A stretch of DNA of 32,316 nucleotides from assembly GCA_018901625.1 (NCBI GenBank), contig JAHIEM010000051.1, positions 1-32,316 of the forward strand, given 5' to 3'. The notes under the pieces are model-generated. The model was given only the letters and a program-made list of their open reading frames with translations. It did not search any database and had not been told where the DNA came from. Made by a program: the position numbers and the translations under genes. Positions 19,187 through 32,077 of the stretch are shown here, in pieces (position 1 is the first letter of the stretch; the number at the start of each line of letters is the position of its first letter). The DNA is from Nanobdellota archaeon. Lineage in GTDB: Archaea > Nanobdellota > Nanobdellia > Pacearchaeales > GW2011-AR1.

Positions 19187-19283
19187 TAGCGGGGGCGGGA
19201 TTTGAACCGCGCGACCTCAGGGTTATGGGCCATTCGCTTTGTTTTCACAAATCTGCGAGCTAACCAGGCTGCTCCACCCCGCT
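19187..19283 (-). tRNA. Initiator-type tRNA-Met (CAU) with a 21-nt non-canonical intron (between positions 29/30)
   Basis: Acceptor AGCGGGG/CCCCGCU (A1:U72), discriminator A, D stem GAGC/GCUC (A11:U24). After removing 19232-19252 the anticodon stem is CAGGG/CCCUG (three G:C pairs) with loop CCCAUAA. T loop UUCAAAU, followed by an oligo-T tract. Caveats: C at position 33 and one extra C in the 5' strand of the T stem. Confidence 0.8.
19232..19252 (-). other. tRNA-iMet intron with bulge-helix-bulge motif
   Basis: Positions are counted from the tRNA 5' end. Central 4-bp helix UCGC (nt 26-29) / GCGA (nt 47-50). The 3-nt bulges are AGA (30-32) and AUG (51-53), and the inner helix is UUUG/CAAA (33-36/43-46). 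Cutting after the 2nd bulge nucleotide on each side yields the mature anticodon stem. Confidence 0.7.
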
Positions 19284-19307: not shown

Positions 19308-19988
19308 TTATAAACCTTTCTCTTGCAAAAAAGGCATTGCTCTCTCAATGTAAAGCTTATTAGAACTCCCAACAAGACTAAACCATTTTTTAAGCTCATA
19401 TTTTCCGCTTATCCTTATCTTAATCTTGCCCTTCTCTAATTCTTGAATTTTGTAATTAAAACCTGCTTCATTTAGGATGCTAATAAATTGATTTTTTGCA
19501 GGGCAAGGGCAGACTCTAATCTCAATTCTGGGATAACTTATTCCGTTGTTGTTAAAGACAGTCACAGAACCATCAGTGTCAAATAATCCTCTTAGAACAA
19601 GCAAGCCGAGTTTTCCCTTAGTGTAATCTCCTGGGATTTCCATATTTTCCCACTTAGGAGAGATTTTAAGCCCAAGAGAGTCTAATGCGTAAAGAACCTT
19701 TTCTTTCTTAAAAACTCTTATGTCCACCGCATTTTCTTTTTTCTTAAAGAAAATCTTAGGTTCTTCATCAAGAACGTTCTCAATGAGTTTTGCAACATAT
19801 TTAGCGTATTCTTTATTTCTTGAGTCGAGAGTAACTTTTAACTGGTGCATTCGCTTTTTCTTACCCTCCTGTTCAAAGTCGTAAATCCCAATACTGCCAT
19901 CTCCCAGCATGATTCCTATAAACTCAGCTATTTTATCCTCTTTTTCCATCCCTAAATTAAGCATTTCTAGATATTTAATTTTTTCCAA
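19308..19988 (-). CDS. Free-standing double-motif LAGLIDADG homing-endonuclease-like protein
   Basis: Two LAGLIDADG motifs (FIGIMLGDGSI and LRGLFDTDGSV) about 100 aa apart; 226 aa. Confidence 0.8.
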   Translation of the reverse strand: MEKIKYLEMLNLGMEKEDKIAEFIGIMLGDGSIGIYDFEQEGKKKRMHQLKVTLDSRNKEYAKYVAKLIENVLDEEPKIFFKKKENAVDIRVFKKEKVLYALDSLGLKISPKWENMEIPGDYTKGKLGLLVLRGLFDTDGSVTVFNNNGISYPRIEIRVCPCPAKNQFISILNEAGFNYKIQELEKGKIKIRISGKYELKKWFSLVGSSNKLYIERAMPFLQEKGL

Positions 19989-20025: not shown

Positions 20026-20741
20026 ATGGAAAGATTAGAGAAAGTACATCTAAAGTTGGGAATTGACGACGCAGGCAGAGAATAACTTTTAGTTGTTCGC
20101 CTATAGGCCCAGTCATAGGCCCAATGGTCCTAGCTGGATGCTTAGTTGATGAAGAAATTGAAGAAGAATTCAAAAAATTAGGGATAAAAGATTCTAAACA
20201 GATTTCACCTAAAAAGAGGCAAGAACTAGCCCGGATAATAAAAGAAAAAGCCCTCGCATTTGAAATAACTTTAACATTTCCTAATGAAATTACAGAAAAA
20301 AACAAGAACGGGGTTAATTTGAATACAATCGAAGCTCAAAAAGCAGCAGAGATTATTAATAAAGTAAATAAGGCACAAGGAAAAATTCTAGTCTATATTG
20401 ACACTCCAAGCCCAAATCTTAAGGCATGGCAGAATGTTCTTGAAGGCTATATAGAAAATAAAGATAACTTAGAAATTCACTGCGAACACAAGGCAGATCA
20501 GAATCATGTCTCCTGTTCAGCAGCAAGCATTTTAGCAAAAACAACACGAGATGCAGAAGTAGAAAAAATAAAAAAGCTAGTTGGAGTTGATTTCGGAAGC
20601 GGATATCCAAGTGACCCTCTAACCTGCAAATTCCTAAAAGAGTATGCAGAAAAACACAAGCATGACGGAATTTTCAGAGAAACCTGGAGCACTTGGAAAC
20701 AAGTTTGCGCTAAAAAAGAGCAGAAAACACTGGATTTCTAA
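20026..20741 (+). CDS. rnhB: Ribonuclease HII, coding sequence interrupted by a 26-nt insert (exons 20026-20078 and 20105-20741)
   Basis: Exon 1 reads MERLEKVHLKLGIDDAGR, then hits a stop at 20083-85. Exon 2 in another frame reads GPVIGPMVLAGC...KDSKQISPKKRQ...HKADQNHVSCSAASILAKTTRD...GSGYPSD. Removing 20079-20104 gives a continuous 690-nt ORF with the consensus GIDxAGRGPVIGP N-terminus. Confidence 0.7.
20079..20104 (+). other. Candidate BHB mini-intron within the rnhB mRNA
   Basis: Helix AGGC (20073-76) / GCCU (20099-102), bulges AGA (20077-79) and AUA (20103-05), inner hairpin GAAUAACU-UUU-AGUUGUUC (20080-98). The outer helix is only 1-2 bp. Confidence 0.5.
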
Positions 20742-21218: not shown

Positions 21219-21899
21219 TTATAAAATTTCAACAATTTCTCCAATATCTTTTTTTAGGGAATAGAGCATTGGAGGCCTGTGAGAAACATTTTTTTTCATC
21301 TCCTCTTTCTTCAAAATATCTAAAGATAGAATCTTTTTTGCAAAATTTCTTTTATCAAACTTCTTGTCAAAAATAATCTCATAAATCTTCTGAATTTGGC
21401 CTATAGTAAACTTTTCTGGCAATAGTGAGAAAGCAACTGTTGTGTATTCAAATTTCCATTTTAATCTTTTTAATGAATAATCAAGTATCTTCTTATGGTC
21501 AAATGCAAGCTGGGGAATCTTTTTTACAGAGAACCACCGAACTTCTGAAACATCTGTTGCAGCATTAAGTTTTATTTTTTCAGAATTTATTAAAGTCATG
21601 TAAGCAACTGTAATAACTCTTCCTCTTGGATCTCTCTTAGGATCTCCAAAACTATACAATTGTTCAAGATAAACATCTTTAACTCCAGTTTCTTCTTCTA
21701 ACTCTCTTTTTGCAGCATCTTCCAGAGATTCATGAATTCTAACAAATCCTCCTGGAATTGCCCATTTATCTTTAAAAGGCGTAATACCTCTTTTAACTAA
21801 CAAAATTTTCAAATCATTATTTTGTATTGTATAAATAACTATATCTGCCGTAACAGAAGGTTTCTCATATTTATGGATGTTATCTTCCATAGTGTTCAT
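21219..21899 (-). CDS. nrtR: NrtR-like protein: Nudix hydrolase domain fused to a C-terminal winged-helix domain
   Basis: Nudix box GGFVRIHESLEDAAKRELEEETGV. The C-terminal FTIGQIQKIYEIIFDKKFDKRNFAKKILSLDIL matches the NrtR wHTH signature (FTLxQLQxxYExI...DKRNFRKK). Confidence 0.7.
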   Translation of the reverse strand: MNTMEDNIHKYEKPSVTADIVIYTIQNNDLKILLVKRGITPFKDKWAIPGGFVRIHESLEDAAKRELEEETGVKDVYLEQLYSFGDPKRDPRGRVITVAYMTLINSEKIKLNAATDVSEVRWFSVKKIPQLAFDHKKILDYSLKRLKWKFEYTTVAFSLLPEKFTIGQIQKIYEIIFDKKFDKRNFAKKILSLDILKKEEMKKNVSHRPPMLYSLKKDIGEIVEIL

Positions 21900-21913
21900 A
21901 AAACAATAAGGTA

Positions 21914-21934
21914 TTTAAAGTTTTATTCTTTAAA
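21914..21934. promoter_or_regulatory. Palindrome in the divergent nrtR / 21941 promoter region (back-to-back TATA boxes and/or operator)
   Basis: tttaaag-ttttatt-ctttaaa. Each arm lies about 25-30 nt from the start codon it faces (21941 on + and 21899 on -). Confidence 0.3.
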
Positions 21935-21940
21935 CTAGAT

Positions 21941-23443
21941 ATGATAACAATGCTTTTTCCTGGAAGACATCACATGCTAACTAAGTTTCAATATAGTTAC
22001 CTAAGAAGCATTATTGATAGAGGAATTAATAGAGAGAAAGTTGATAGGATAATTTTTGCAATAACTTCTTCAGACCATGCTAATACTAGAAGGAATCCTA
22101 TTCCACTTTATCTGCGAGTTTTAGCTATAGAGAAATTTTCAAGAGACTTGCCTTGCGAAGTTAAAATTTATCCCATTCCAGATGTTAATCAAACTAAAAA
22201 GTTTGCAGAATATCTACTTCATCAAATAGAATACCAGGGAGGAGAAAAACTAACATCTAAAAATACAATCTTAGCATGTTCAACTCCTCCAGTTATTAAT
22301 TTATTTAAAAAATTAAAATTTGATAACCTGCCTGTAGAATTATTAGATGCAAAAAAAGACAAGTATTCAAATTTAAGGCCATATGAAGTTGTAGATTTGT
22401 TAGTTAAGGCTGGAAAAAACTGGAGAACAGATTTAAAATGGAAAGAATTTGCTTCTCAGGCAACTCAAGACGTATATTTAGAATACAATTTAGGAGACAG
22501 TATTCTTGAATTATTCAAGGACTCTTTGATTAATGAAGATGCAGATTTAACAGATACAAGAGATTATAATAGTTATGCAAGAGGGATGGACCAAAATATT
22601 GAGTTTAAATTTAATGATATAAACCCCTTTGTTATTCAAGGAAAAATAATTGATGCTGGTTGCGGAACAGGAGCTTTAATTTGGCACCTATCAAAATATT
22701 TTGAGGAATCAGATGTTATAGGCATAGAAGCCACAAGGAAGTTTTATGAATATTGTAAATTGCAACAATACCCAAACCCCTTTGTTTATTTTTATAGAAG
22801 AAATATATTAGACCAGAACTTTAAAAAAAATACTATAAACACTTTTATTTATTCATCTGTTCTGCACGAAATTTATTCTTATATAAACAAAGAAGCTTTA
22901 AGAAAAGTTTTGAGGAATACTTACAATCAACTTGCTCCGGGGGGGAGAATAGTTATCAGAGATGTTGTTGGTCCAGAAAAAGGAAAAGAAAAAGTTTTAT
23001 TAGAATTAAATGAAAAGGATGGAAAAAACTTAGGAGATATTAAGTCTCTTTCAACTTATGCAAAATTTCATAGATTTGTTAAAGATTTTATCCCAAGAAA
23101 AATAAAATTCAGAGAAAAGAAAATTAACAGAAAAAAGCTTATAGAAACCACATTAAGTGATGCGTATGAGTTTATGAGCAAAATGAGTTATACTGACAAT
23201 TGGCAAAGTGAAATGCATGAAGAATTTGGATTTTGGAATTTTAGTGATTGGAAAAAAGAATTAAAGAAAATTGGTTTTGAGATTGTTGCAGGATCACATC
23301 CATTCAAAAGCAATTATATTATAGAGAAAATGTATAATGGAAAAATTACAATCTTCAAGCAAAAAGGCAAAGACTTAACAATTGTGAATTATCCTCCAAC
23401 AAATATTATCCTGGCAGGCGAGAAACCTAAAGTAGATAATTAG
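21941..23443 (+). CDS. Fusion protein: NadM/NMNAT-like nucleotidyltransferase-fold N-domain with an altered HxGH motif, plus a class I SAM-dependent methyltransferase domain
   Basis: The N-terminus FPGRHHMLTKFQ...IIFAITSSDHANTRRNPIPLYLRVLAI aligns by eye with archaeal NMNAT GRFQPFHKGH...[21 protein letters not shown]. The MTase motif I is IIDAGCGTGALIWHL, followed by DVIGIEA and later SSVLHEI and GGRIVIRD. Confidence 0.55.
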   Translation: MITMLFPGRHHMLTKFQYSYLRSIIDRGINREKVDRIIFAITSSDHANTRRNPIPLYLRVLAIEKFSRDLPCEVKIYPIPDVNQTKKFAEYLLHQIEYQGGEKLTSKNTILACSTPPVINLFKKLKFDNLPVELLDAKKDKYSNLRPYEVVDLLVKAGKNWRTDLKWKEFASQATQDVYLEYNLGDSILELFKDSLINEDADLTDTRDYNSYARGMDQNIEFKFNDINPFVIQGKIIDAGCGTGALIWHLSKYFEESDVIGIEATRKFYEYCKLQQYPNPFVYFYRRNILDQNFKKNTINTFIYSSVLHEIYSYINKEALRKVLRNTYNQLAPGGRIVIRDVVGPEKGKEKVLLELNEKDGKNLGDIKSLSTYAKFHRFVKDFIPRKIKFREKKINRKKLIETTLSDAYEFMSKMSYTDNWQSEMHEEFGFWNFSDWKKELKKIGFEIVAGSHPFKSNYIIEKMYNGKITIFKQKGKDLTIVNYPPTNIILAGEKPKVDN

Positions 23444-23885
23444 TTCTTGCCCAATCCTTTATTTGTTCTGCTAAACTTTCTAAAGAATAAACAATTTTAA
23501 TCTCAGGTCTTTCAAGTCTTGTTTGAATTTCCACATCTCTTCTTCTTACATACCCTGCATGAACTCCTATGAATAGAGGCTTTTTACCTGTGCTTTGTTT
23601 TCCCAATTCATACAGCGTTATAGGGCAAAGTGTCTCTTTTGGAAACCAGAAAGAAACTGCACTTGCTTTTGCTAGATGATTGTATTCCCAATTTATTTGT
23701 TCTTCTTCAATATTTAGATTGTCTGTTGAAAAATGTTTTCTTTTCGGATTTAAAATAACTAAATTAGTCTCTTTAAGGAGCCTAGCCAAATCAGGTTGCC
23801 AGATTGGACAGTTACTAATGCCACCAGCTAAAAACAAAGACATTTCTTGACCTTCATAAACTTCTGGACATTCTATATATTTCAT
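23427..23885 (-). CDS. Nucleoside 2-deoxyribosyltransferase-like (Rossmann-like N-glycosidase superfamily) protein
   Basis: 152 aa. SLFLAGGISNCPIWQ (nucleotide-binding start), ...EQINWEYNHL...VSFWFPKETLCPITLYELG is typical of the Nuc_deoxyribosyltransferase-like families. Motif-level call. Confidence 0.5.
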   Translation of the reverse strand: MKYIECPEVYEGQEMSLFLAGGISNCPIWQPDLARLLKETNLVILNPKRKHFSTDNLNIEEEQINWEYNHLAKASAVSFWFPKETLCPITLYELGKQSTGKKPLFIGVHAGYVRRRDVEIQTRLERPEIKIVYSLESLAEQIKDWARTNYLL

Positions 23886-23892
23886 ATTAGTT

Positions 23893-25557
23893 TTATCTTT
23901 TGTATTTTTGGGTTACAATCTTTTTTATTAGAGTTAATCCATAAAATTTCTTGTTTTCTTTTGGAAAATCTTCTCTATAATGACAAGCTCTTGTTTCTTT
24001 TCTTGCAAGAGCACTTTCTACAATTGCTAATGCAACCTCTGCAATGTTTCTTACTTCCAAAAAGTCTTTTTCTATTTTATAATTCCAATAATATTCATTT
24101 ATGTCTTTTTTTAATGCAAGAAGTACTTCTCTTGCAGCAGTTAGTCTTTCTTTGTTTCTGGCAATTCCACATAAAGAAGTCATTGTCTTTCTTATTGTTT
24201 CCCAATAATATTCAATTGTTGCTTTGTCTTTTATATGCTGATTAGTTGTTGATTTCCATATGGGAATCTTTATTTCTTCTTTGGAATTTTTATTGTCTTT
24301 GTTAAGGAAATGTTTTGCAGCTAACCTGCCGAATAAAATACATTCTGGAGCAGAATTACTTGCAAGTCTTGTTGCACCATGCAATCCTGTATATGAGACT
24401 TCTCCGATAAAATAACAGTCTTCAATACTTGTTTCACTATTTTCTCCAACCAAAACTCCTCCATTAGAATAGTGTTCTGCATAAACAACTGGGACTGATT
24501 CTTTAATTAAATCTATGCCTTTAGATAAACAAAATTCATAGGAATTTTTAAAATCCTGCTTTAATCTTTCAGACTCAATTTTTGTACAGTCAAGCCAGAT
24601 ATTTTTTAATTTGTTTTTTTTCATTTCCATATCTTCAGCTCTTGATACAACATCTCTTGTTGCTTTTGAACCAAGAGGGTCATATTTTAAAACGAAATCT
24701 TCTTTTGAATCTTTATCAAGTTTGAGAAAAGCTCCTGCTCCCCTTAGTGCTTCTGTTAATAAAAATCTTCTTTCACTTTCATTAGTAAGGCATGGGTCAT
24801 AAAATACAGTTGGGTGAAATTGTATAAATTCCATATTTGCAAGAGGCAAACCAATTCTATATGCCATCGCAAATCCATCTCCAGATGCAATATCTTGATT
24901 AGAAGTATACAAGAAAACTTTTCCCAAACCTCCTGTTGCAATGAATGTACTATCACAGCTTATTGTTTTAATATCATCTTCATTTATATCATAAATATAA
25001 AAACCTAGACATCTATCTTTTCCTTTAGTTTTAAAAAATTTATTTTTTGTTATCAAATCTATTGCTACATGGTTTTCATATAATTTAATATTTGGATGAT
25101 TTTTTACTAATTTTGTTAAAATATCCATTATTGCTTTTCCAGTTGTATCTTTAACATGAAATATTCTGTTGGTAGAATGTCCTCCTTCCCTATGCAAGTC
25201 ATATTCATTATTTATTTTATCAAATTCAACTCCCTTTTTTTCAAGCCATTGGATTACTTCTGGATAGAATTTTTCTGCGCAAAATTTAACTATTTTTTTA
25301 TTATTCAAAAACTTTCCTGCTTTTAATGTATCATCAATATGTTTTTCAAAAGAGTCTCCAGCAATTGGTTTTCCATTTTTTAATGGAATTGCAGTTAATC
25401 CGCCTGCTGCAAGATAACTATTAGAATCTTCTTGCAATTTTTTTTTAACAAATAACGCAACTTTTTTACCAGAATCAGCAATCTCTAAAGCAATAGCACA
25501 TCCAGCAAGCCCGCCTCCTATAATTCCACAATCAGTTTTTAAAAAAATATTTTTCAT
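23893..25557 (-). CDS. nadB: L-aspartate oxidase-type FAD flavoprotein
   Basis: FAD dinucleotide fold DCGIIGGGLAGCAIALEIA, FIATGGLG, FIQFHPT, EHYSNGGV, and GEVSYTGLHGATRLASNSAPECILFG (NadB/SdhA signature); 554 aa. Confidence 0.75.
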   Translation of the reverse strand: MKNIFLKTDCGIIGGGLAGCAIALEIADSGKKVALFVKKKLQEDSNSYLAAGGLTAIPLKNGKPIAGDSFEKHIDDTLKAGKFLNNKKIVKFCAEKFYPEVIQWLEKKGVEFDKINNEYDLHREGGHSTNRIFHVKDTTGKAIMDILTKLVKNHPNIKLYENHVAIDLITKNKFFKTKGKDRCLGFYIYDINEDDIKTISCDSTFIATGGLGKVFLYTSNQDIASGDGFAMAYRIGLPLANMEFIQFHPTVFYDPCLTNESERRFLLTEALRGAGAFLKLDKDSKEDFVLKYDPLGSKATRDVVSRAEDMEMKKNKLKNIWLDCTKIESERLKQDFKNSYEFCLSKGIDLIKESVPVVYAEHYSNGGVLVGENSETSIEDCYFIGEVSYTGLHGATRLASNSAPECILFGRLAAKHFLNKDNKNSKEEIKIPIWKSTTNQHIKDKATIEYYWETIRKTMTSLCGIARNKERLTAAREVLLALKKDINEYYWNYKIEKDFLEVRNIAEVALAIVESALARKETRACHYREDFPKENKKFYGLTLIKKIVTQKYKR

Positions 25558-25558
25558 A

Positions 25559-26386
25559 TTAGTTCGGGGTAATCACCCTTAATGGGTTTTTACTTAATTT
25601 TATTTCGAGCCGCGAGTCTCTAGGTAAATCAAATTCTTTTGTATCTATAGAAAATTTTCCTTCATGCCCTTTGTAATCTATTCTAACATAACCTGCTTTT
25701 CCTTGCCCAATAATTCCTGAATAGGGTAGCAATGTTCTAAACTCAAAATATGGGTTGCTTCTTGAATATGTTTTAAATGCAGCAGGCCATGCACTTGAAC
25801 CTGTTCCAGTTACAATAACAATTCCAGAACCACTTTGAGTTTCTTGTTTAGTTAATCCACTTTCTGCATCTAAAAACATTAGATTGTACTTTGCAAGTTT
25901 ATCAAATCTTAATCTTTCTCCTACACATGTTTCATTAGAAGCTCTTCCTGCGAATTTACCATCAAGATAAACATCTTGCCTTTGCCATTCTTCAATTTTA
26001 TATTTGCCTGAGAGAAAAAGTTCAAGAGCTTTTTCAACATCTTTTTGGCAAAGGGCTCCTGCGCTTCTTGAATCTGTTCTTAAGTTTAATTGGATAATAT
26101 CTAAGTTATATGCTGCCACAGCAATAACTGTTCCATCTCCTCCTGCTGAAATTACAGCATCATAACCTCTGAGAAGTTCTTCAGAAAGTTCTTTTCTTGT
26201 TACTATATCAACTTGGGTTCCAGCTTTCTTTAATATTTCCTCTATTCTTCTTAAACTTTCATTATGGCTCTTATGACTTTCATTTATAACTTCACTTTTA
26301 TGATTTCCATTATAATAATATTCAAGAGCAGACATTTTTCTTACAACAAGTATTTTTTTAAAAGCCATTTTAAATTTCCTTCTCAA
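25559..26386 (-). CDS. nadK: NAD kinase
   Basis: GGDGT motif (ISAGGDGTVIAVAAY) and the C-terminal VTGTGSSAWPAAF (equivalent to TPTGSTAY). The start could be the internal M at 26368. Confidence 0.75.
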   Translation of the reverse strand: MRRKFKMAFKKILVVRKMSALEYYYNGNHKSEVINESHKSHNESLRRIEEILKKAGTQVDIVTRKELSEELLRGYDAVISAGGDGTVIAVAAYNLDIIQLNLRTDSRSAGALCQKDVEKALELFLSGKYKIEEWQRQDVYLDGKFAGRASNETCVGERLRFDKLAKYNLMFLDAESGLTKQETQSGSGIVIVTGTGSSAWPAAFKTYSRSNPYFEFRTLLPYSGIIGQGKAGYVRIDYKGHEGKFSIDTKEFDLPRDSRLEIKLSKNPLRVITPN

Positions 26387-26460
26387 ATAAATTCCAATCT
26401 TTGAAATAGTTTCTCATATAATTCTCCCTAATTGTCTATTTTTAAAGTAATTGTTTAGTT

Positions 26461-26994
26461 TCATTTTATCTCCCCCAATCTTCGCAATTTTTCATACATT
26501 ACTAGATAAGCTGTCTTTGACCCTTCTATTCTGTTGTCAATCACCATTTTATAAACCTCATCAAAAGAGAGAGTTACTACTTGAATTTTCTCTGTATCTT
26601 CTAATCTTTGATTCACCTTTTTTCCCGGACCATGTGCTAAAAATAAATAGACTCTTTCAGTATCATGGCCGTCTGTTGAGATAAGCCTCCCAAGTGATTC
26701 AACTTGATTAGGTTTAATTCTAATTCCACATTCTTCTTCAAGACCCTCAATCATTACTTCCAAAGGACTTAATCCCTCTTTATCAAGTGTTTCAGCAGGT
26801 AATGCTAAAATCTCTTCTTCCATTGCAGGCCTGAATTGTTTAGTGAGATAAACCTGATCTTTTTCATCAATATATAACATAACTGCTGCATCTTTTGATA
26901 CAACTACATCATATTTTTTCCCTTCATGAAACCTGTGAACAAGAGTTAGGTACCCTCTGTAAACAACAATATCTCGCGGTTTAGTTTTTACCAT
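26461..26994 (-). CDS. Nudix hydrolase, ADP-ribose pyrophosphatase-like
   Basis: LPAETLDKEGLSPLEVMIEGLEEECGI is a Nudix box in the NudF-like context. The start is set at ATG 26994, 1 nt after the nadD stop; the track ORF extends to 27051 inside nadD. Confidence 0.6.
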   Translation of the reverse strand: MVKTKPRDIVVYRGYLTLVHRFHEGKKYDVVVSKDAAVMLYIDEKDQVYLTKQFRPAMEEEILALPAETLDKEGLSPLEVMIEGLEEECGIRIKPNQVESLGRLISTDGHDTERVYLFLAHGPGKKVNQRLEDTEKIQVVTLSFDEVYKMVIDNRIEGSKTAYLVMYEKLRRLGEIK

Positions 26995-26995
26995 T

Positions 26996-27559
26996 TTATT
27001 TAAGATAAAATTCTCCATTTTTAATATATTCTTCAACTTTATCTGGAACAAGCCCTTTAATTAAAATTCCTTTTTCAAGATTATCTCTAATTTGATTTGA
27101 AGATATTTTATTATTTATATTCAAAATCTCCCGAATATCAATTCCTAAATCATTAGAGAAATCAAAACCAGGTCTTTTTATTAAAATAAATTTAACACTA
27201 TTCTTTAAATATTCAAAGTCATGCCATTTTTCTAAATCCTTTATATTATCTGCTCCCATGACAAAATAAAAATCATGAGGAAATTCTCTTTTAAACCAGG
27301 ATATTGTTTTTGAAGTATAGCTTTTTTTATCTGGATCTAATTCTACCCCTATTACTTTAACTAAAGGATTATTTTCAATAGCTAAATTAATCATCTTCAT
27401 TCTAACTTCTCCACTTACTAGTTTTTTATTAAATGCATGATTCCCACAAGGAATAAGCCAAACTTGGTCCACTATTTGCTTTGATAGTAATTCATTTACT
27501 ATTTGCAAATGCCCGTTGTGAATTGGATTAAAACTTCCTCCAAATAATGCAACTTTCAT
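26996..27559 (-). CDS. nadD: Nicotinate-nucleotide adenylyltransferase, bacterial NadD type
   Basis: ALFGGSFNPIHNGHL (GxFxPxHxGH), later FVMGADN and the ISSNQIR (ISST-like) motif; 187 aa. Confidence 0.85.
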   Translation of the reverse strand: MKVALFGGSFNPIHNGHLQIVNELLSKQIVDQVWLIPCGNHAFNKKLVSGEVRMKMINLAIENNPLVKVIGVELDPDKKSYTSKTISWFKREFPHDFYFVMGADNIKDLEKWHDFEYLKNSVKFILIKRPGFDFSNDLGIDIREILNINNKISSNQIRDNLEKGILIKGLVPDKVEEYIKNGEFYLK

Positions 27560-28260
27560 TTTTCCTCCCGAACATAAAAAGTTGGGGGCATTTTTCGCTT
27601 ATGTTCTGAATATCTCACTCTATTCTGGATTGCATCATAAACTTTCCCTTTTGTTATCTCTCCATTTAATACAGCATCAATTTCTTTGTAACTCGCTCCA
27701 ATTTCTCCCTCATCCGTTTGCCCCTCAAAAAGTTCTGCAGAAGGTTTTCTGTCTATTATTTTTTTAGGTATTCCTAAAATTTTAGCTACTTCAAAGATTT
27801 TTGTTTTGTAGATATCTGCTATTGGTTCAATATCACAACCACCATCTCCATATTTTGTAAAATATCCTATTTCAATTTCAGTTTTGTTGCTTGTTCCTAC
27901 CACTATTCCGTTTAGTTGATTTGCAAAACTGTACAAAATTATCATTCTTGTTCTTGCCATTATGTTTCCTAGGCTTACTTTATCAAATTTGTAATAATTG
28001 AATTTATCAACTATCTCTTTGATATTTATTTCTTTGTTCTCTATCCCAAGATAATCTGTAACAAGTTTTCCGTCTTCTGTACTCTGTGCTCCATATGGAA
28101 TTAAAATTCCAAGAACATTTTCCTTGCCTACTGCCCTTACGCATAGGGCAGCGACTACCGCACTGTCAATTCCACCAGATACCCCGATTATTGCTTTTTT
28201 GTTTCCTAGGTATTCTCTAAGTTTCAATGTTATTTTTTCAATTACTTCTTCGTGCATCAT
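27556..28260 (-). CDS. nadE: NH3-dependent NAD+ synthetase
   Basis: PP-loop GVSGGIDSAVVAAL, GTSNKTEIEIGYFTKYGDGG, and EEKPSAEL-like PSAELFEGQTDEGE. The start at ATG 28260 forms an ATGA overlap with the upstream stop. Confidence 0.85.
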   Translation of the reverse strand: MMHEEVIEKITLKLREYLGNKKAIIGVSGGIDSAVVAALCVRAVGKENVLGILIPYGAQSTEDGKLVTDYLGIENKEINIKEIVDKFNYYKFDKVSLGNIMARTRMIILYSFANQLNGIVVGTSNKTEIEIGYFTKYGDGGCDIEPIADIYKTKIFEVAKILGIPKKIIDRKPSAELFEGQTDEGEIGASYKEIDAVLNGEITKGKVYDAIQNRVRYSEHKRKMPPTFYVREEK

Positions 28261-29195
28261 TTTCCTTCTTCCTCCAAAAAATAAGGTGTTAAGCAAAGCC
28301 TGCAAAATTTCCCCCTAATAAAAGGCTCAATTGCCTCTGTTGTATTCGCCAATAAAATAGCATCACTTGCTTTCAAGCTAAGATTATGTTTCTCATTTAG
28401 ACTATTGACTATTTTTTCCTGAATTGGCTTGTATTTTTTGTATAACTCCTGTGGCTTTATATTGTCCAAGACTTTTTCAGTTACAACTAAAGAAAAGATA
28501 TTTTTGAACCATTTATTTCCAATTAATGTTTCTAGAGGCTCTTTTGTAAAAGCAAAACCAGCCCTGTAATAATACATTCCAAAAGGTTTTGACATTGAAG
28601 CCATAACTGCAATTATATTTGGATAGCCAACATCAAAAACATGCTCTTGTGTTAATCCAACATAAGCAAGGTCATACACTACCCTATGATATTTACATAT
28701 ATTCTTTACGAACTCATTTGGAATTATATTCCCATCTCTTCCAGAAGGGTTTGAAATAAAAAATATGCCTGGCTCTAATTTTGAAAAATCCTCATTTTCA
28801 TCAACTTTCTTTATTTTTATTCCTATTCTTACTGCATACTCTTTATAGCCTTCATACTCTTCATTGAGTGTATATATCTGAATATCTGGCTCTTTGCATT
28901 TTAATTCCACAAGAAAGTGAAAAATTCCCTGCCTTGAGCCCTCTGTGAAATACTTAAATGGAAAATTCTTTAACCCAGGAACAAGTTTTTTATGATATTC
29001 TATAAATTTCTCTATTGCTGGAAGATGAAAGTTATCCAATCCTGGATTTATTGAGCTAAGAAAAACTTTATGCGGGTAATTTTTAACAACTCTGTCTATG
29101 ATTTTTCTTATTTCAGGAAAATAATAACAATAAACTGTCTTTGTTGCTTTTATTTTTTCTTCTCTTTCAATTATTTTTTGTTTTTGTTTTTTCAT
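28257..29195 (-). CDS. Short aminotransferase class I/II-like (PLP fold type I) protein, function unknown
   Basis: FISNPSGRDGNII (equivalent to NPxNPTG), YDLAYVGL (equivalent to DEAY), and ASMSKPFGMYYYRAGFAF (equivalent to SxSKxxGxxGxRxG, the PLP lysine). At 312 aa it is shorter than typical aminotransferases. Confidence 0.5.
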   Translation of the reverse strand: MKKQKQKIIEREEKIKATKTVYCYYFPEIRKIIDRVVKNYPHKVFLSSINPGLDNFHLPAIEKFIEYHKKLVPGLKNFPFKYFTEGSRQGIFHFLVELKCKEPDIQIYTLNEEYEGYKEYAVRIGIKIKKVDENEDFSKLEPGIFFISNPSGRDGNIIPNEFVKNICKYHRVVYDLAYVGLTQEHVFDVGYPNIIAVMASMSKPFGMYYYRAGFAFTKEPLETLIGNKWFKNIFSLVVTEKVLDNIKPQELYKKYKPIQEKIVNSLNEKHNLSLKASDAILLANTTEAIEPFIRGKFCRLCLTPYFLEEEGK

Positions 29196-29196
29196 C

Positions 29197-30057
29197 TTAA
29201 ATTAAAATTGCTCCTTTATATTGCCAGTCAAACCTGAGATGCCCGTCTGGAAAAAAGATTATTTGCCTTAGGCTATCTGACTTTGGTTTAATTGTTAAAG
29301 CATCTGTTAAGCACAGATTCTGCCCGTTTAAATCGTAAACTTGTGCTCCATCTTGCAAGGTCATTATTTTATTTCCATTTTTTGCAATAAATTTTTTTAT
29401 TTTTACAAGTTCAGTTTCGCTTGCAATATTCTCTTTAGTCCATGCGAATATATCTTGGTTTTCAGAGTGTTTTGGCGTTGCTAATTTTCTTATGCTCAAT
29501 TGCTCAACTTTCCATTCTTTAGCTTTTTTAATAAGTTTTTCAACTTCTTTGGGATTATCCACAAATCCCTTTAGAATAGTGCAGCTTAATCTTACTGAAA
29601 ACCCTATTTTGTGAAGTTTATCTATTAGGTTTTTAAGTTCAGGATACTTATCAGAGAAAATTTTCTTATTTCTCTTTTGTTCGTAATGAACTATAGATAA
29701 TGCAATCATTGTTAATCCAAGCTTGTACCATTCTTCCAAGTACTTATTGTAGTTTTCTTCAGCTAAAACAATTCCGTTTGTTTGCAATTCTAATAACGGA
29801 AAATTAAACTTTTTTAAATTTTCCAAAAATTTTGTTATTTGCTCTGGATAAAGGGTTGGTTCTCCTTTTCCAGTTATTAAGGTAGTTGTTACTCCATTTA
29901 TTTCTGCTAACCTACAAGCCTTCTCAAAATTTCTCCAGTTAACTCTTGGTTCTTCTATATTAATTCCTTGTTTTGGAGTCATCTTTGATATGCAGTACGG
30001 GCAGTGTGCATTACATTCTGTTGTTCCTGCAACTATGCTAAATGTTTGTATTTTCAT
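29197..30057 (-). CDS. Radical SAM enzyme, function unknown
   Basis: CNAHCPYC (CxxxCxxC) at aa 15-22, and TLITGKGEPTLYP (SAM-binding GGE-like motif); 286 aa. Confidence 0.8.
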   Translation of the reverse strand: MKIQTFSIVAGTTECNAHCPYCISKMTPKQGINIEEPRVNWRNFEKACRLAEINGVTTTLITGKGEPTLYPEQITKFLENLKKFNFPLLELQTNGIVLAEENYNKYLEEWYKLGLTMIALSIVHYEQKRNKKIFSDKYPELKNLIDKLHKIGFSVRLSCTILKGFVDNPKEVEKLIKKAKEWKVEQLSIRKLATPKHSENQDIFAWTKENIASETELVKIKKFIAKNGNKIMTLQDGAQVYDLNGQNLCLTDALTIKPKSDSLRQIIFFPDGHLRFDWQYKGAILI

Positions 30058-30890
30058 ATTCTTCCCTCCAAGACATCTTTAGTTGTGATTAGTTTAGCTC
30101 CTGCTGCAACCATTTCTTCCAAAGCTTTTTGAGTTGTGTCTGGAAAAACTCCTTTTACAGCATCTTCAATGACATAGCACTGAACTCCCCTGTTTTGAAG
30201 TTCGAGAGTACCTGCTCTTACACAAAAATCAGTTGCAACTCCATATACCACTGCTTCATCAATTCCTGCTCTTTTTATGAATTCGCCTGTATTCGGATTG
30301 TCAAAAACATTGTAGGTTTGTTTTTCAAAATAAACTCCTCTCTGCAGATACCCTGGGATTTTTACTCTTTTTACTTCTTCGACCATCATTCCAATTTCTT
30401 GATTATCGATTCCTGTTGTCTGCAAAATAAACATATCTTTAATTTCTTCTTCACTTGCTTCCCAGAACTTAGGATTTTGCGTTTTTTCAATAAACTCTCT
30501 TGTTTCTCTACGAACTTCTTCTAAAGTGACTTTGCAGGTTAGGGGATTATAAACAAAGAAGCAATCATTATAATCTCCCTCCCCTTTTCCTCCCCATGAC
30601 CCCCTTTTAAGTGTTGTTTCCCAAATCTTGTCTTGCCCGGCAGTATGATTCATGCAGTGATCTGGGAAAGGCCCGCCCCATCTTCTTAATTCTCCTTCTC
30701 TTTCTTTGTATTCCAGATTTCCGAAATGCCTATCAACACTCCCCACTATTGGAATGCCTTTTTCTCTTGCAAAATCAGTTAGAAGCTTTAGGTTTGGCCT
30801 TATCAATTCTGCATCAGGGACATATAATGCTCCTTCTTTTTTCATAAAGTCATATTGTGTGTCAACATCCCAAAAAACTCTTAGTCTCAT
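30054..30890 (-). CDS. pncA: Nicotinamidase (isochorismatase fold) with a large internal insertion
   Basis: VDTQYDF (catalytic Asp), SVDRH and FPDHCMNHTAG (metal site), FEKQTYNVF (Lys), VYGVATDFCV (nucleophile Cys); 278 aa. Confidence 0.8.
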   Translation of the reverse strand: MRLRVFWDVDTQYDFMKKEGALYVPDAELIRPNLKLLTDFAREKGIPIVGSVDRHFGNLEYKEREGELRRWGGPFPDHCMNHTAGQDKIWETTLKRGSWGGKGEGDYNDCFFVYNPLTCKVTLEEVRRETREFIEKTQNPKFWEASEEEIKDMFILQTTGIDNQEIGMMVEEVKRVKIPGYLQRGVYFEKQTYNVFDNPNTGEFIKRAGIDEAVVYGVATDFCVRAGTLELQNRGVQCYVIEDAVKGVFPDTTQKALEEMVAAGAKLITTKDVLEGRI

Positions 30891-32077
30891 CTTCCTCCTC
30901 CTAATCTTAATTTTAATCTTAGATTTGGATTATATCCTCTTCCTGTTTTTGAGATTGGAACAAAACTTTCAGGAGTTTCTCCAACAGCAACTATGTCCAT
31001 TTTTGCTGCTCTTGATTTGAATACCTGGCCAACTCCAAGTAAGTCAAATAATTTTACTCCTAAAATTTCTTCTGCATTTGCAAAAGCTTCTACTTTTCTT
31101 GGTTCTGCAAATCCACTTGATAATGCAAGTTTCATGTTAGCATATCCCTTTTCATTTAGAGCTTTTCTCATGGCATAAACTCCTGTTACATTTACTCCGT
31201 GTCCAAACCAATATTTTTCATCTTCAGTTGGAACTATTATTCTTCTTCCAACTAATTGTGCTAATTTTTCTGCATCTGGGAATTCTAGGGCTCCTTCCCC
31301 TACATTTTCTCCACAAGTATCTATTCGTGGTCCCCATAATCTGTTTCCAATTCCTTTTGCACAGGCTAAAGTATCTGTAATTTCTTTATTTCTGTAATCG
31401 CAGAGAATTATTCTTGGCACTTTAGCATCAATGTGTCTATCAAAAGCTAGAAGAGTTTCAAGAACAGCCCTTTCTCTTCCATATTTCCAAGCCATTATAT
31501 TTTCTAAAACATGCGGAGTTGTGCCCATTCCTTTTTGTCTAAATGTCCCTGCTCCTGCATCTGTTGAAGCGCTTGTTGCTCCACCCTCATAAGCAGCCCA
31601 GGTAATTGCAGCATCTTCATCAAATCTCCAGTGTCTTGCTCCAAAATATGAAACCGGCCTTCCTCTAGCTGCTTTAACAACAGCAGCCATATTTTCTCTT
31701 ACTTGATTTAAATCTACTCCCTGTCTATCATTGGCTTTAGTTGTTTCTGCACTTAAAACTCCTAAATACATTGTTTCAAGTTCTACTATATCCTGAATTG
31801 GAGCTTCAATTAACATAAGTGTTTCTCTCGGAGCATAATCTGCTCCTTCTTCTAAAGCATAAACTCTCCCACCATTTTGTTTTAAAGGAGAATATTTTTC
31901 AAGAACAGCCAGAGCTTCATCTACTCCATAAACTTGCCCTGGTCCTTTTCTTATCATTACCTGAGCTCTAACCCATGGATTGATACCTTCAGCTCTTAGT
32001 ACTTCTCCTGTCCTTAAGAAATACTTATCAGCATATGGCTGAGGTTTCTCAGGTAGACTAAAGTTTGTTGTTTTCAT
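30887..32077 (-). CDS. pncB: Nicotinate phosphoribosyltransferase, archaeal/type II PRTase (QPRT-like fold)
   Basis: At 396 aa its length matches the about 390-aa archaeal NAPRTases. ...FGARHWRFDEDAAITWAAYEGGATSAST...GMGTTPHVLENI... resembles the Thermoplasma-type enzyme (FGIRRMHP...GGADGVS...VGTMPHAL). Confidence 0.75.
   Translation of the reverse strand: MKTTNFSLPEKPQPYADKYFLRTGEVLRAEGINPWVRAQVMIRKGPGQVYGVDEALAVLEKYSPLKQNGGRVYALEEGADYAPRETLMLIEAPIQDIVELETMYLGVLSAETTKANDRQGVDLNQVRENMAAVVKAARGRPVSYFGARHWRFDEDAAITWAAYEGGATSASTDAGAGTFRQKGMGTTPHVLENIMAWKYGRERAVLETLLAFDRHIDAKVPRIILCDYRNKEITDTLACAKGIGNRLWGPRIDTCGENVGEGALEFPDAEKLAQLVGRRIIVPTEDEKYWFGHGVNVTGVYAMRKALNEKGYANMKLALSSGFAEPRKVEAFANAEEILGVKLFDLLGVGQVFKSRAAKMDIVAVGETPESFVPISKTGRGYNPNLRLKLRLGGGR

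Follow-up and report, generated by a model that had tools for sequence, protein, structure and literature searches.

A candidate small BHB-type intron within the coding sequence of the RNase HII gene rnhB in DPANN archaea and Bathyarchaeia

rnhB and its neighbors in the window

Here, we describe a computational analysis of the rnhB locus on a 32,316-nt stretch of archaeal DNA with a GC content of 35% (from here on, the window). The proteins of the window match best those of MAGs named Nanoarchaeota or Pacearchaeota, which assigns the DNA to a DPANN archaeon. In addition to rnhB, which encodes RNase HII, the window holds a gene for tRNA-iMet, a LAGLIDADG-like ORF (Pfam LAGLIDADG_3, LAGLIDADG_2) that is free-standing between tRNA-iMet and rnhB, and genes for IleRS, dUTPase, TatD, and Sua5 (Table 1). 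It also holds an NAD cluster with genes for a NUDIX/NrtR-like regulator, an L-aspartate-oxidase-like flavoprotein, an NMN adenylyltransferase-like protein, NadE, a nicotinamidase, and an NAPRTase-like protein; such a salvage/biosynthesis cluster is notable for a DPANN genome of presumably reduced metabolism. The PncA-like nicotinamidase gives a split Pfam match, and its residues 9-89 and 187-268 align to residues 9-82 and 97-178 of 1ilw; we considered this ORF as an intron-split gene and rejected it, as the two isochorismatase-fold halves are separated by an in-frame insertion of ~97 aa and not by an intron.

Table 1. Coordinates of rnhB, the candidate intron, and neighboring features in the window (L027, L030, and L031 are related loci)
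Feature	Position	Strand	Remarks
tRNA-iMet(CAT)	19187..19283	-	21-nt BHB intron 19252..19232 at position 29/30; 0.8 kb from the rnhB insert
LAGLIDADG-like ORF	19308..19988	-	between tRNA-iMet and rnhB
Putative TATA-like box TTTAAA	19997..20002	+	~25 nt 5' of ATG 20026; read from the sequence
rnhB exon 1	20026..20078	+	encodes MERLEKVHLKLGIDDAG and AG (bases 1-2 of an Arg codon); start codon kept in L027, L030, and L031
H(a), 5' strand of the central 4-bp helix, AGGC	20073..20076	+	Ala wobble base and Gly codon; covaries with H(b)
5' bulge AGA	20077..20079	+	predicted cleavage between 20078 and 20079
Putative BHB-type intron, 26 nt	20079..20104	+	in-frame TAA at 20083-20085
Inner helix h', 8-bp hairpin (one U.G)	20080..20098	+	GAAUAACU / UUU / AGUUGUUC
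H(b), 3' strand of the central helix, GCCU	20099..20102	+	inside the putative intron
3' "bulge" AUA	20103..20105	+	predicted cleavage between 20104 and 20105; no real outer helix closes it
rnhB exon 2	20105..20741	+	third base of the Arg codon, then GPVIGPMVLAGC...; stop codon at 20739-20741
NAD cluster	21219..32077		
Nicotinamidase (PncA-like)	30054..30890	-	~97-aa in-frame insertion

In the mechanical ORF list, the rnhB ORF begins at M20124 (MVLAGC...). The first-pass annotation had pointed out that this ORF is devoid of the catalytic segment, which lies upstream in another frame, and the coordinates hold: reading from the ATG at 20026 gives MERLEKVHLKLGIDDAGRE and ends at the TAA inside the insert. 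Also as claimed there, deletion of exactly 20079-20104 (AGAATAACTTTTAGTTGTTCGCCTAT, 26 nt) fuses the ATG at 20026 to the rnhB ORF in one 690-nt frame encoding ...GIDDAGRGPVIGPMVLAGC..., and the 229-aa product of this frame matches positions 1-198 of the 199 positions of Pfam RNase_HII (E = 1.9e-45) and aligns with no gap across the junction to the RNase HII of M. jannaschii (PDB 1eke) and P. horikoshii (PDB 1uax). The active-site segment of the spliced product, GIDDAGRGPVIGP, is intact; the junction 20078/20105 reads GCAGGCAG/AGGCCCAGTC, and the peptide GPVIGPMVLAGCLVDEEIEEEFK is encodable by a spliced mRNA only. Exon 1 bears the first two catalytic acidic residues (D-D in the window, D-E in most homologues), which align to the D and E of GIDEAGRG in 1eke. 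Because this acidic pair is encoded in exon 1, a protein starting at M20124 would be without both residues. Deletion of 20080-20105 or 20081-20106 gives a product identical to that from deletion of 20079-20104; since three deletion registers yield the same product, the cut sites are fixed by the BHB rule only.

An A/T-rich TTTAAA element similar to that in the window is found 5' of exon 1 in L027, L309, and L031, and the position of the element in the window would imply a transcript that begins at exon 1 with little or no leader. As a separate observation, ATAGGCCCA is present twice, 12 nt apart (20103-20111 and 20115-20123), and codes both G-P dipeptides of GPVIGP; the first copy begins at the predicted 3' splice site. 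This repeat is probably a mere consequence of the codons used.

Structure of the insert and of the neighboring tRNA-iMet intron

The 4-bp helix AGGC/GCCU, the bulges AGA and AUA, and the 8-bp inner hairpin described in the first-pass annotation are all present in the sequence, and the MFE fold of 20050-20130 (-24.6 kcal/mol, z = -2.45; 1 of 200 shuffles did equally well) contains H together with the 5' bulge and the inner hairpin. On the 3' side, this fold has a bulge of 4 nt (AUAG) bounded by two G-C pairs. In both the MFE fold and RNAalifold, H and h' enclose the 5' bulge AGA; the 3' triplet is without an outer helix in RNAalifold. Extended exon-exon helices in the window MFE fold (UGAC/GUCA and GUUGGG/CCCAAU) were rejected, as they are neither conserved nor covarying in the family except at coding-constrained positions.

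When the insert is compared with the strict hBHBh' form, the central 4-bp H between the cleavage sites (AGGC/GCCU) is present, and an outer helix h that joins the exons by 2 bp or more is not. In the 3-nt register, the outer pairing in the 102 junctions among the matches listed (see below) consists of a single invariant C-G pair that is coding-constrained; in the 4-nt register, it consists of C-G, then G-Y in 80 of the 102 junctions among the matches listed (81 with one U-A), and then G-C in 61, with no covariation. Because the outer helix is essentially absent, the motif corresponds to the relaxed HBh' form and not to strict hBHBh', and the earlier reservation that the outer helix is weak was borne out, with the invariant C-G pair being accompanied by at most one or two weak pairs. 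The HBh' form is recognized here by H, one closed 3-nt bulge, the intron helix h', and a predicted second cut that follows H(b) at a distance of 2 nt; removal of the insert by the cut rule would yield the full RNase HII frame and, in the neighboring gene, a valid tRNA-iMet.

Group I and group II introns are built around a catalytic RNA core that is hundreds of nucleotides long. A self-splicing intron of either group was rejected on the basis that the insert is just 26 nt and that Rfam gave no intron-family match even at E <=10. Over the whole window, Rfam gave nothing relevant, a weak SNORD19B-like match at 20140-20214 being due to chance.

The first-pass annotation had also described an intron of the same layout in the tRNA-iMet gene, and we confirmed this layout (UCGC-AGA-UUUGU GAAA ACAAA-GCGA-AUG). 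The intact gene is missed by ARAGORN and by Rfam (gathering threshold, E<=10), and ARAGORN finds tRNA-iMet only after in silico removal of the 21 nt at 19252..19232. For this tRNA, the anticodon stem forms again only if each bulge is cut 3' of its second base, and cutting rnhB by that rule brings its exons into the proper frame. With a tRNA-iMet intron of identical layout and cut rule, the organism must have an endonuclease that can process this very motif outside the canonical intron position. In the related locus L030 (250-405), the orthologous tRNA-iMet gene, which lies directly 5' of rnhB on the same strand, appears to bear three inserts, one at 29/30, one close to the anticodon loop, and one preceding the T arm; the insert at 29/30 shows compensatory hairpin changes.

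Genes for EndA and RtcB were not found within the window using Pfam profiles. A scan of the window for BHB motifs (4-bp H, 3-nt bulge, inner stem of >=4 bp) gave 394 matches compared with roughly 200-250 in shuffles, and these matches are mostly noise. The best ORF-joining match (28291-28328, minus strand) joins an aminotransferase-like gene with NadE, a gene with a start of its own, and was rejected as a chance match; no further convincing coding-sequence intron was found in the window by this crude scan.

Relatives of the insert, covariation, and taxonomic reach

Using the spliced protein as the query, we found many full-length homologues and, in approximately one-tenth of the cases, N-terminally truncated calls of 205-210 aa. 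All six truncated DPANN calls examined at the DNA level bear an insert at the same site, and a conforming insert with the bulge AGA is present in 8 of 8 lineages selected through truncated protein calls (P0002, P0023, P0037, P0040, P0044, P0051, P0130, and P0137). The public calls of intron-bearing rnhB are systematically wrong (P0001/P0002, P0121-P0158, P0241, and P0244/P0245), giving either a 204-210-aa "ribonuclease HII" that starts past the intron or a wrong-frame N-terminus derived from exon 1 and the intron (e.g., VWSGRRRERAELSTSSPTGPVIGP). Spliced cDNA-like contigs were not found among the protein-database matches; the longer cluster members are wrong-frame read-throughs (P0241, P0244) or intron-less (P0242, P0243).

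At the DNA level, an identical 26-nt insert is present in three independent assemblies obtained through ENA, NCBI, and Logan (L024-L026, with the sources ERZ27247124, SRR6976411, and GCA_018899435.1). Because the same insert recurs in independent assemblies, it is no assembly artefact, which answers a question raised by the first-pass annotation. Four close lineages bear the insert with compensatory changes. In L027 and L031, the insert has 26 nt, and in the hairpin C-G is replaced by U-A and U.G by U-A; L030 also has compensatory hairpin changes, and its 27-nt insert leaves the exons in one frame but with an in-frame TAA between them. L314 and L315 have 24-nt inserts with in-frame stops. The idea that the insert is a lesion in a decaying pseudogene or a product of mis-assembly, and the gene therefore dead or mis-assembled, draws on the truncated ORFs without catalytic residues given by gene callers; however, besides the identity of the insert in L024-L026, the structure is upheld by compensatory substitutions, the exons, start codons, and active-site motif on either side of the insert are intact at more than 100 distinct loci from many samples, and a second copy of rnhB is not evident within the window based on the ORF list and Pfam profiles. 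We therefore give virtually no credence to this idea.

To sample the family more broadly, we used a DNA pattern that fixed AGAGA...TC and NCC and left H(a) and the outer H(b) positions free; introns in which the Arg codon or a closing pair differs are missed by this pattern. The pattern gave more than 119 loci in metagenomes and 40 loci in species-representative genomes, of which 33 were rnhB introns, and after de-duplication there were 102 distinct junctions among the matches listed (metagenomes and MAGs). The first genome-wide pattern (GCAGGCAGA N{15,45} GGNCCNNTNNTNGGNCC) was discarded as too loose, its 120 matches being mostly from GC-rich bacteria and including 4 rnhB inserts. In the 102 junctions among the matches listed, the inserts have 20-46 nt and all lie at the Arg codon of G-I/V-D-D/E-A-G-R followed by G-P. 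In all sequences retained among the matches listed, the motif is recovered when the insert is cut out as the BHB rule prescribes, and the proposal that a cut after the second bulge nucleotide restores the frame therefore applies not only to the window but also over inserts of 20-46 nt.

The bulge AGA is present in 102 of 102 pattern-selected junctions, but this is forced by the pattern. Among the matches listed, the central helix H is fully paired in 100 of 102 junctions, and a contiguous inner stem of at least 4 bp is present in 94. In the same 102 junctions among the matches listed, the Ala wobble base and the last H(b) base occur as AU (44), CG (16), GC (12), GU (11), and UA (11), and the Gly wobble base and the first H(b) base as CG (52), UG (31), UA (8), and GC (6). 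In a structural alignment of the matches listed, 96.0% of the cells were paired compared with 78.6% in shuffles (0 of 500 shuffles reached 96.0%), both sides had changed in 197 cells compared with 55 in shuffles, and controls with a slid register were 33-48% paired. Of the ten pairs scored, four were set in advance by the Gly codon or by the AGAGA...TC and NCC of the pattern and count for nothing as independent evidence; the signal derives from four pairs of the inner helix and the two H pairs that were left free. The inner hairpin covaries across the family. For 13 unmodified 29-nt examples, RNAalifold predicted an inner helix of 7 bp in addition to H and a 3-nt bulge, and it predicted no outer helix. 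Thus, the check for the insert and its compensatory pairing in relatives suggested by the first-pass annotation showed both to be conserved, with covariation in the 102 junctions among the matches listed. The Gly codon 3' of the junction is pyrimidine-ended in 86 of 102 intron-bearing sequences among the matches listed compared with 6 of 17 intron-less ones; this bias could reflect selection for the weak outer pair, and phylogeny confounds the comparison.

These data also bear on translational recoding, in which the ribosome would frameshift or, as known from the bypassing of T4 gene 60, hop across the insert, with the hairpin as the signal. The hairpin is stable and a stop codon follows right after the putative take-off codon AGA, and cbf5 introns were formerly taken for frameshifts (PMC2738675). 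However, the insert lengths of the 102 junctions among the matches listed fall into mod-3 classes of 43, 33, and 26, so that the offsets 0, +1, and +2 are all found instead of a constant one, a stop codon follows soon after exon 1 in 101 of them, and stops are present in 26 of 26 in-frame inserts; no single frameshift fits, and the three length classes together with the stops exclude frameshifting. Bypassing of the gene 60 type needs matching take-off and landing codons, but the junction triplet among the matches listed is UAA, UUA, AAA, AGA, AUA, ACA, or UGA, and equals the take-off codon AGA in 13 of 102 junctions only. Moreover, a covarying 4-bp helix between exon wobble positions and the intron end, together with a 3-nt spacing, is what EndA requires and has no role in bypassing. 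We therefore consider recoding very improbable.

Alternatively, the protein could be made from M20124 without exon 1, in which case the hairpin would be a 5'-UTR regulatory element accompanied by a short leader peptide. In the window's lineage, an ATG is present at 20124, and Haloferax HVO_1309 has a BHB element in the 5' UTR (PMC7714728). However, beyond the loss of the first two catalytic acidic residues described above, many intron-bearing homologues have no Met at this position (L052 reads GPIIGPLVMCG), the Bathyarchaeia calls use alternative start codons, and exon 1 is kept as active-site coding sequence at every locus, making a start at M20124 hardly credible.

The putative intron is widespread, reaches Bathyarchaeia, and is precisely absent in close relatives, all of which goes beyond what the first-pass annotation had proposed. 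Based on record titles, of which Bathyarchaeia is the one label checked, the intron-bearing loci are from Woesearchaeota (many), Pacearchaeota, Nanoarchaeia, Bathyarchaeia, Geothermarchaeales, Thermoplasmata/Thermoplasmatales, and Hadarchaeota, and some TPA bins are labeled Methanosarcinales. The relatives of the spliced L301 protein are named Bathyarchaeota/Bathyarchaeia, and 38 of the 38 nearest are without the N-terminal motif. Two Bathyarchaeia loci, one of which is on a 904-kb contig, have 29-nt inserts at the same codon with the helices UGGG/CCCA and CGGG/CCCG. Intron-less relatives (L001-L018) read GCN GGN MGN GGN CC uninterrupted. L309 and L027 share the upstream region and ~89% nucleotide identity through exon 2, and precisely 26 nt are absent in L309; similarly, the intron-less alleles P0242/P0243 from related strains have about 88-92% amino acid identity to the intron-bearing P0044/P0045. 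A rough NJ tree built from 235 proteins requires 12 or more changes of the intron state and has one fixed Bathyarchaeia clade of 36 proteins, all without the N-terminal motif, and scattered singletons in DPANN. The distribution is patchy, with presence/absence polymorphism among close relatives; such a spread, with an intron precisely missing from close relatives, suggests that the intron was lost (or gained) repeatedly at one site.

Homologues of the LAGLIDADG-like ORF recur 5' of rnhB, usually divergently oriented (L001, L027, L031, L163, L183, L250, L252, and L315). We considered this ORF as a homing endonuclease of the intron and rejected it, as the homologues lie beside both intron-bearing and intron-less rnhB genes (L001, L309) and the ORF is outside the intron and on the opposite strand.

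Predicted splicing and comparison with known systems

Altogether, the comparative data strongly support the interpretation of the insert as a relaxed BHB mini-intron, and we consider it highly probable that the rnhB pre-mRNA bears a 26-nt intron of the relaxed HBh' type that is removed by EndA-type splicing and ligation. We infer the cleavage, the ligation, and the enzymes responsible from established archaeal tRNA splicing. According to this model, rnhB would be transcribed as a pre-mRNA carrying the 26-nt relaxed HBh' intron, in which the central helix would arise from base pairing between AGGC (the Ala wobble base and the Gly codon of exon 1) and GCCU, located at the 3' end of the intron; this helix would be flanked 5' by the AGA bulge and the 8-bp intron hairpin and 3' by AUA. 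The tRNA splicing endonuclease (EndA) would cut after the second bulge base, i.e., at 20078/20079 and 20104/20105, leaving a 2',3'-cyclic phosphate and a 5'-OH, and an RtcB-type ligase would join the exons and probably circularize the intron. The outcome would be an mRNA for the 229-aa RNase HII with the GIDDAGRGPVIGP segment. Because the intron bears a stop codon, the unspliced mRNA would yield just a 19-residue peptide. We also note a further proposal, which we regard as unlikely: the intron would be no passive relic but either ancient, having been fixed at this active-site codon before the DPANN/TACK split, or a mini-intron that travels among lineages and always enters this single conserved site, and in either case splicing would gate RNase HII synthesis. 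If this were true, RNase HII production would be coupled to EndA/RtcB activity, the unspliced mRNA giving only the 19-aa peptide, in an archaeal analogue of regulated HAC1/XBP1 splicing.

In the metazoan HAC1/XBP1-type systems, the exons are joined by an RtcB-type ligase. As in rnhB, the HAC1/XBP1 intron is small (26 nt in XBP1), lies in the coding sequence, changes the frame, and involves no spliceosome; unlike in rnhB, IRE1 cleaves, the substrate has two stem-loops and not a BHB motif, and splicing is stress-regulated. Non-canonical archaeal tRNA introns, which are relaxed HBh' motifs away from 37/38, share with the rnhB intron the same H, 3-nt bulge, hairpin, and cut after the second bulge base, whereas the exons of rnhB are mRNA with no tRNA body to aid recognition; the tRNA-iMet intron in the window is itself an example of this type.

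The BHB intron of the cbf5 pre-mRNA was reportedly described by Watanabe in 2002 and by Yoshinari in 2006. Like the cbf5 intron of Crenarchaeota (PMC2738675), which has about 19-31 nt, the rnhB intron is short and interrupts a protein-coding frame; both are often relaxed BHB motifs with patchy gain and loss, both have been mis-annotated or confused with frameshifting, and in both cases the splicing endonuclease of the hosts would accept relaxed motifs. However, the host gene encodes a nuclease of DNA replication and repair and not, as cbf5, an RNA pseudouridine synthase, and the lineages are Woese-, Pace-, and Nanoarchaeia of the DPANN as well as Bathyarchaeia (with labels also from Thermoplasmata and Hadarchaeota) and not Desulfurococcales and Sulfolobales. 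Moreover, splicing of cbf5 was shown by RT-PCR and in vitro cleavage, whereas splicing of rnhB is deduced from comparative evidence. The BHB intron of Haloferax volcanii HVO_1309 (PMC7714728) is, as predicted for that of rnhB, an EndA substrate in an mRNA; it is in the 5' UTR and leaves the frame uninterrupted, whereas the rnhB intron splits an active-site codon.

Yokobori et al. (2009) stated that no splicing was confirmed outside cbf5 and that cbf5 introns had been mis-annotated or taken for frameshifts (PMC2738675). Papers from 2018, 2020, and 2025 name cbf5 as the sole pre-mRNA example, the 2020 paper adding the 5'-UTR element of HVO_1309 (PMC5829648, PMC7714728), and in the full text of open-access papers and preprints we found none that links RNase HII or rnhB to a BHB intron. 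The first-pass annotation had considered that an example in rnhB would be notable; cbf5 is the sole coding-region case named in the open-access full-text literature, and rnhB appears to be the second archaeal protein-coding gene known to need BHB splicing. In mechanism and design, which are already known, the rnhB intron follows relaxed BHB introns and the cbf5 case; its novelty lies in the host gene, the lineages, and the breadth of its distribution.

Reportedly, relaxed motifs require EndAs that have additional loops, i.e., (alpha-beta)2 in TACK, epsilon2 in ARMAN, and the L3-loop alpha4 form in DPANN, the last of which accompanies more disrupted tRNA genes (PMC5829648). The lineages with the putative rnhB intron fit the EndA types linked to relaxed motifs. 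An intron at one codon in more than 100 sequences would span lineages with differing published EndA architectures (DPANN and Bathyarchaeia), and the helix variants produced by evolution would form a natural substrate set for EndA recognition of relaxed motifs outside a tRNA body. Because the central helix of rnhB is built from codon wobble positions, the RNA structure is tied to synonymous-site choice and would constrain codon usage at the junction. For annotation, the finding means that many MAGs are given a 204-210-aa "ribonuclease HII" without the catalytic D-E or a protein with a wrong-frame N-terminus, and seeking more BHB introns in coding sequences of intron-bearing lineages is now clearly worthwhile. 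A second host gene, rnhB, would mean that endonuclease-dependent mRNA splicing, for which cbf5 has been cited as the sole case for more than 20 years, is no crenarchaeal oddity.
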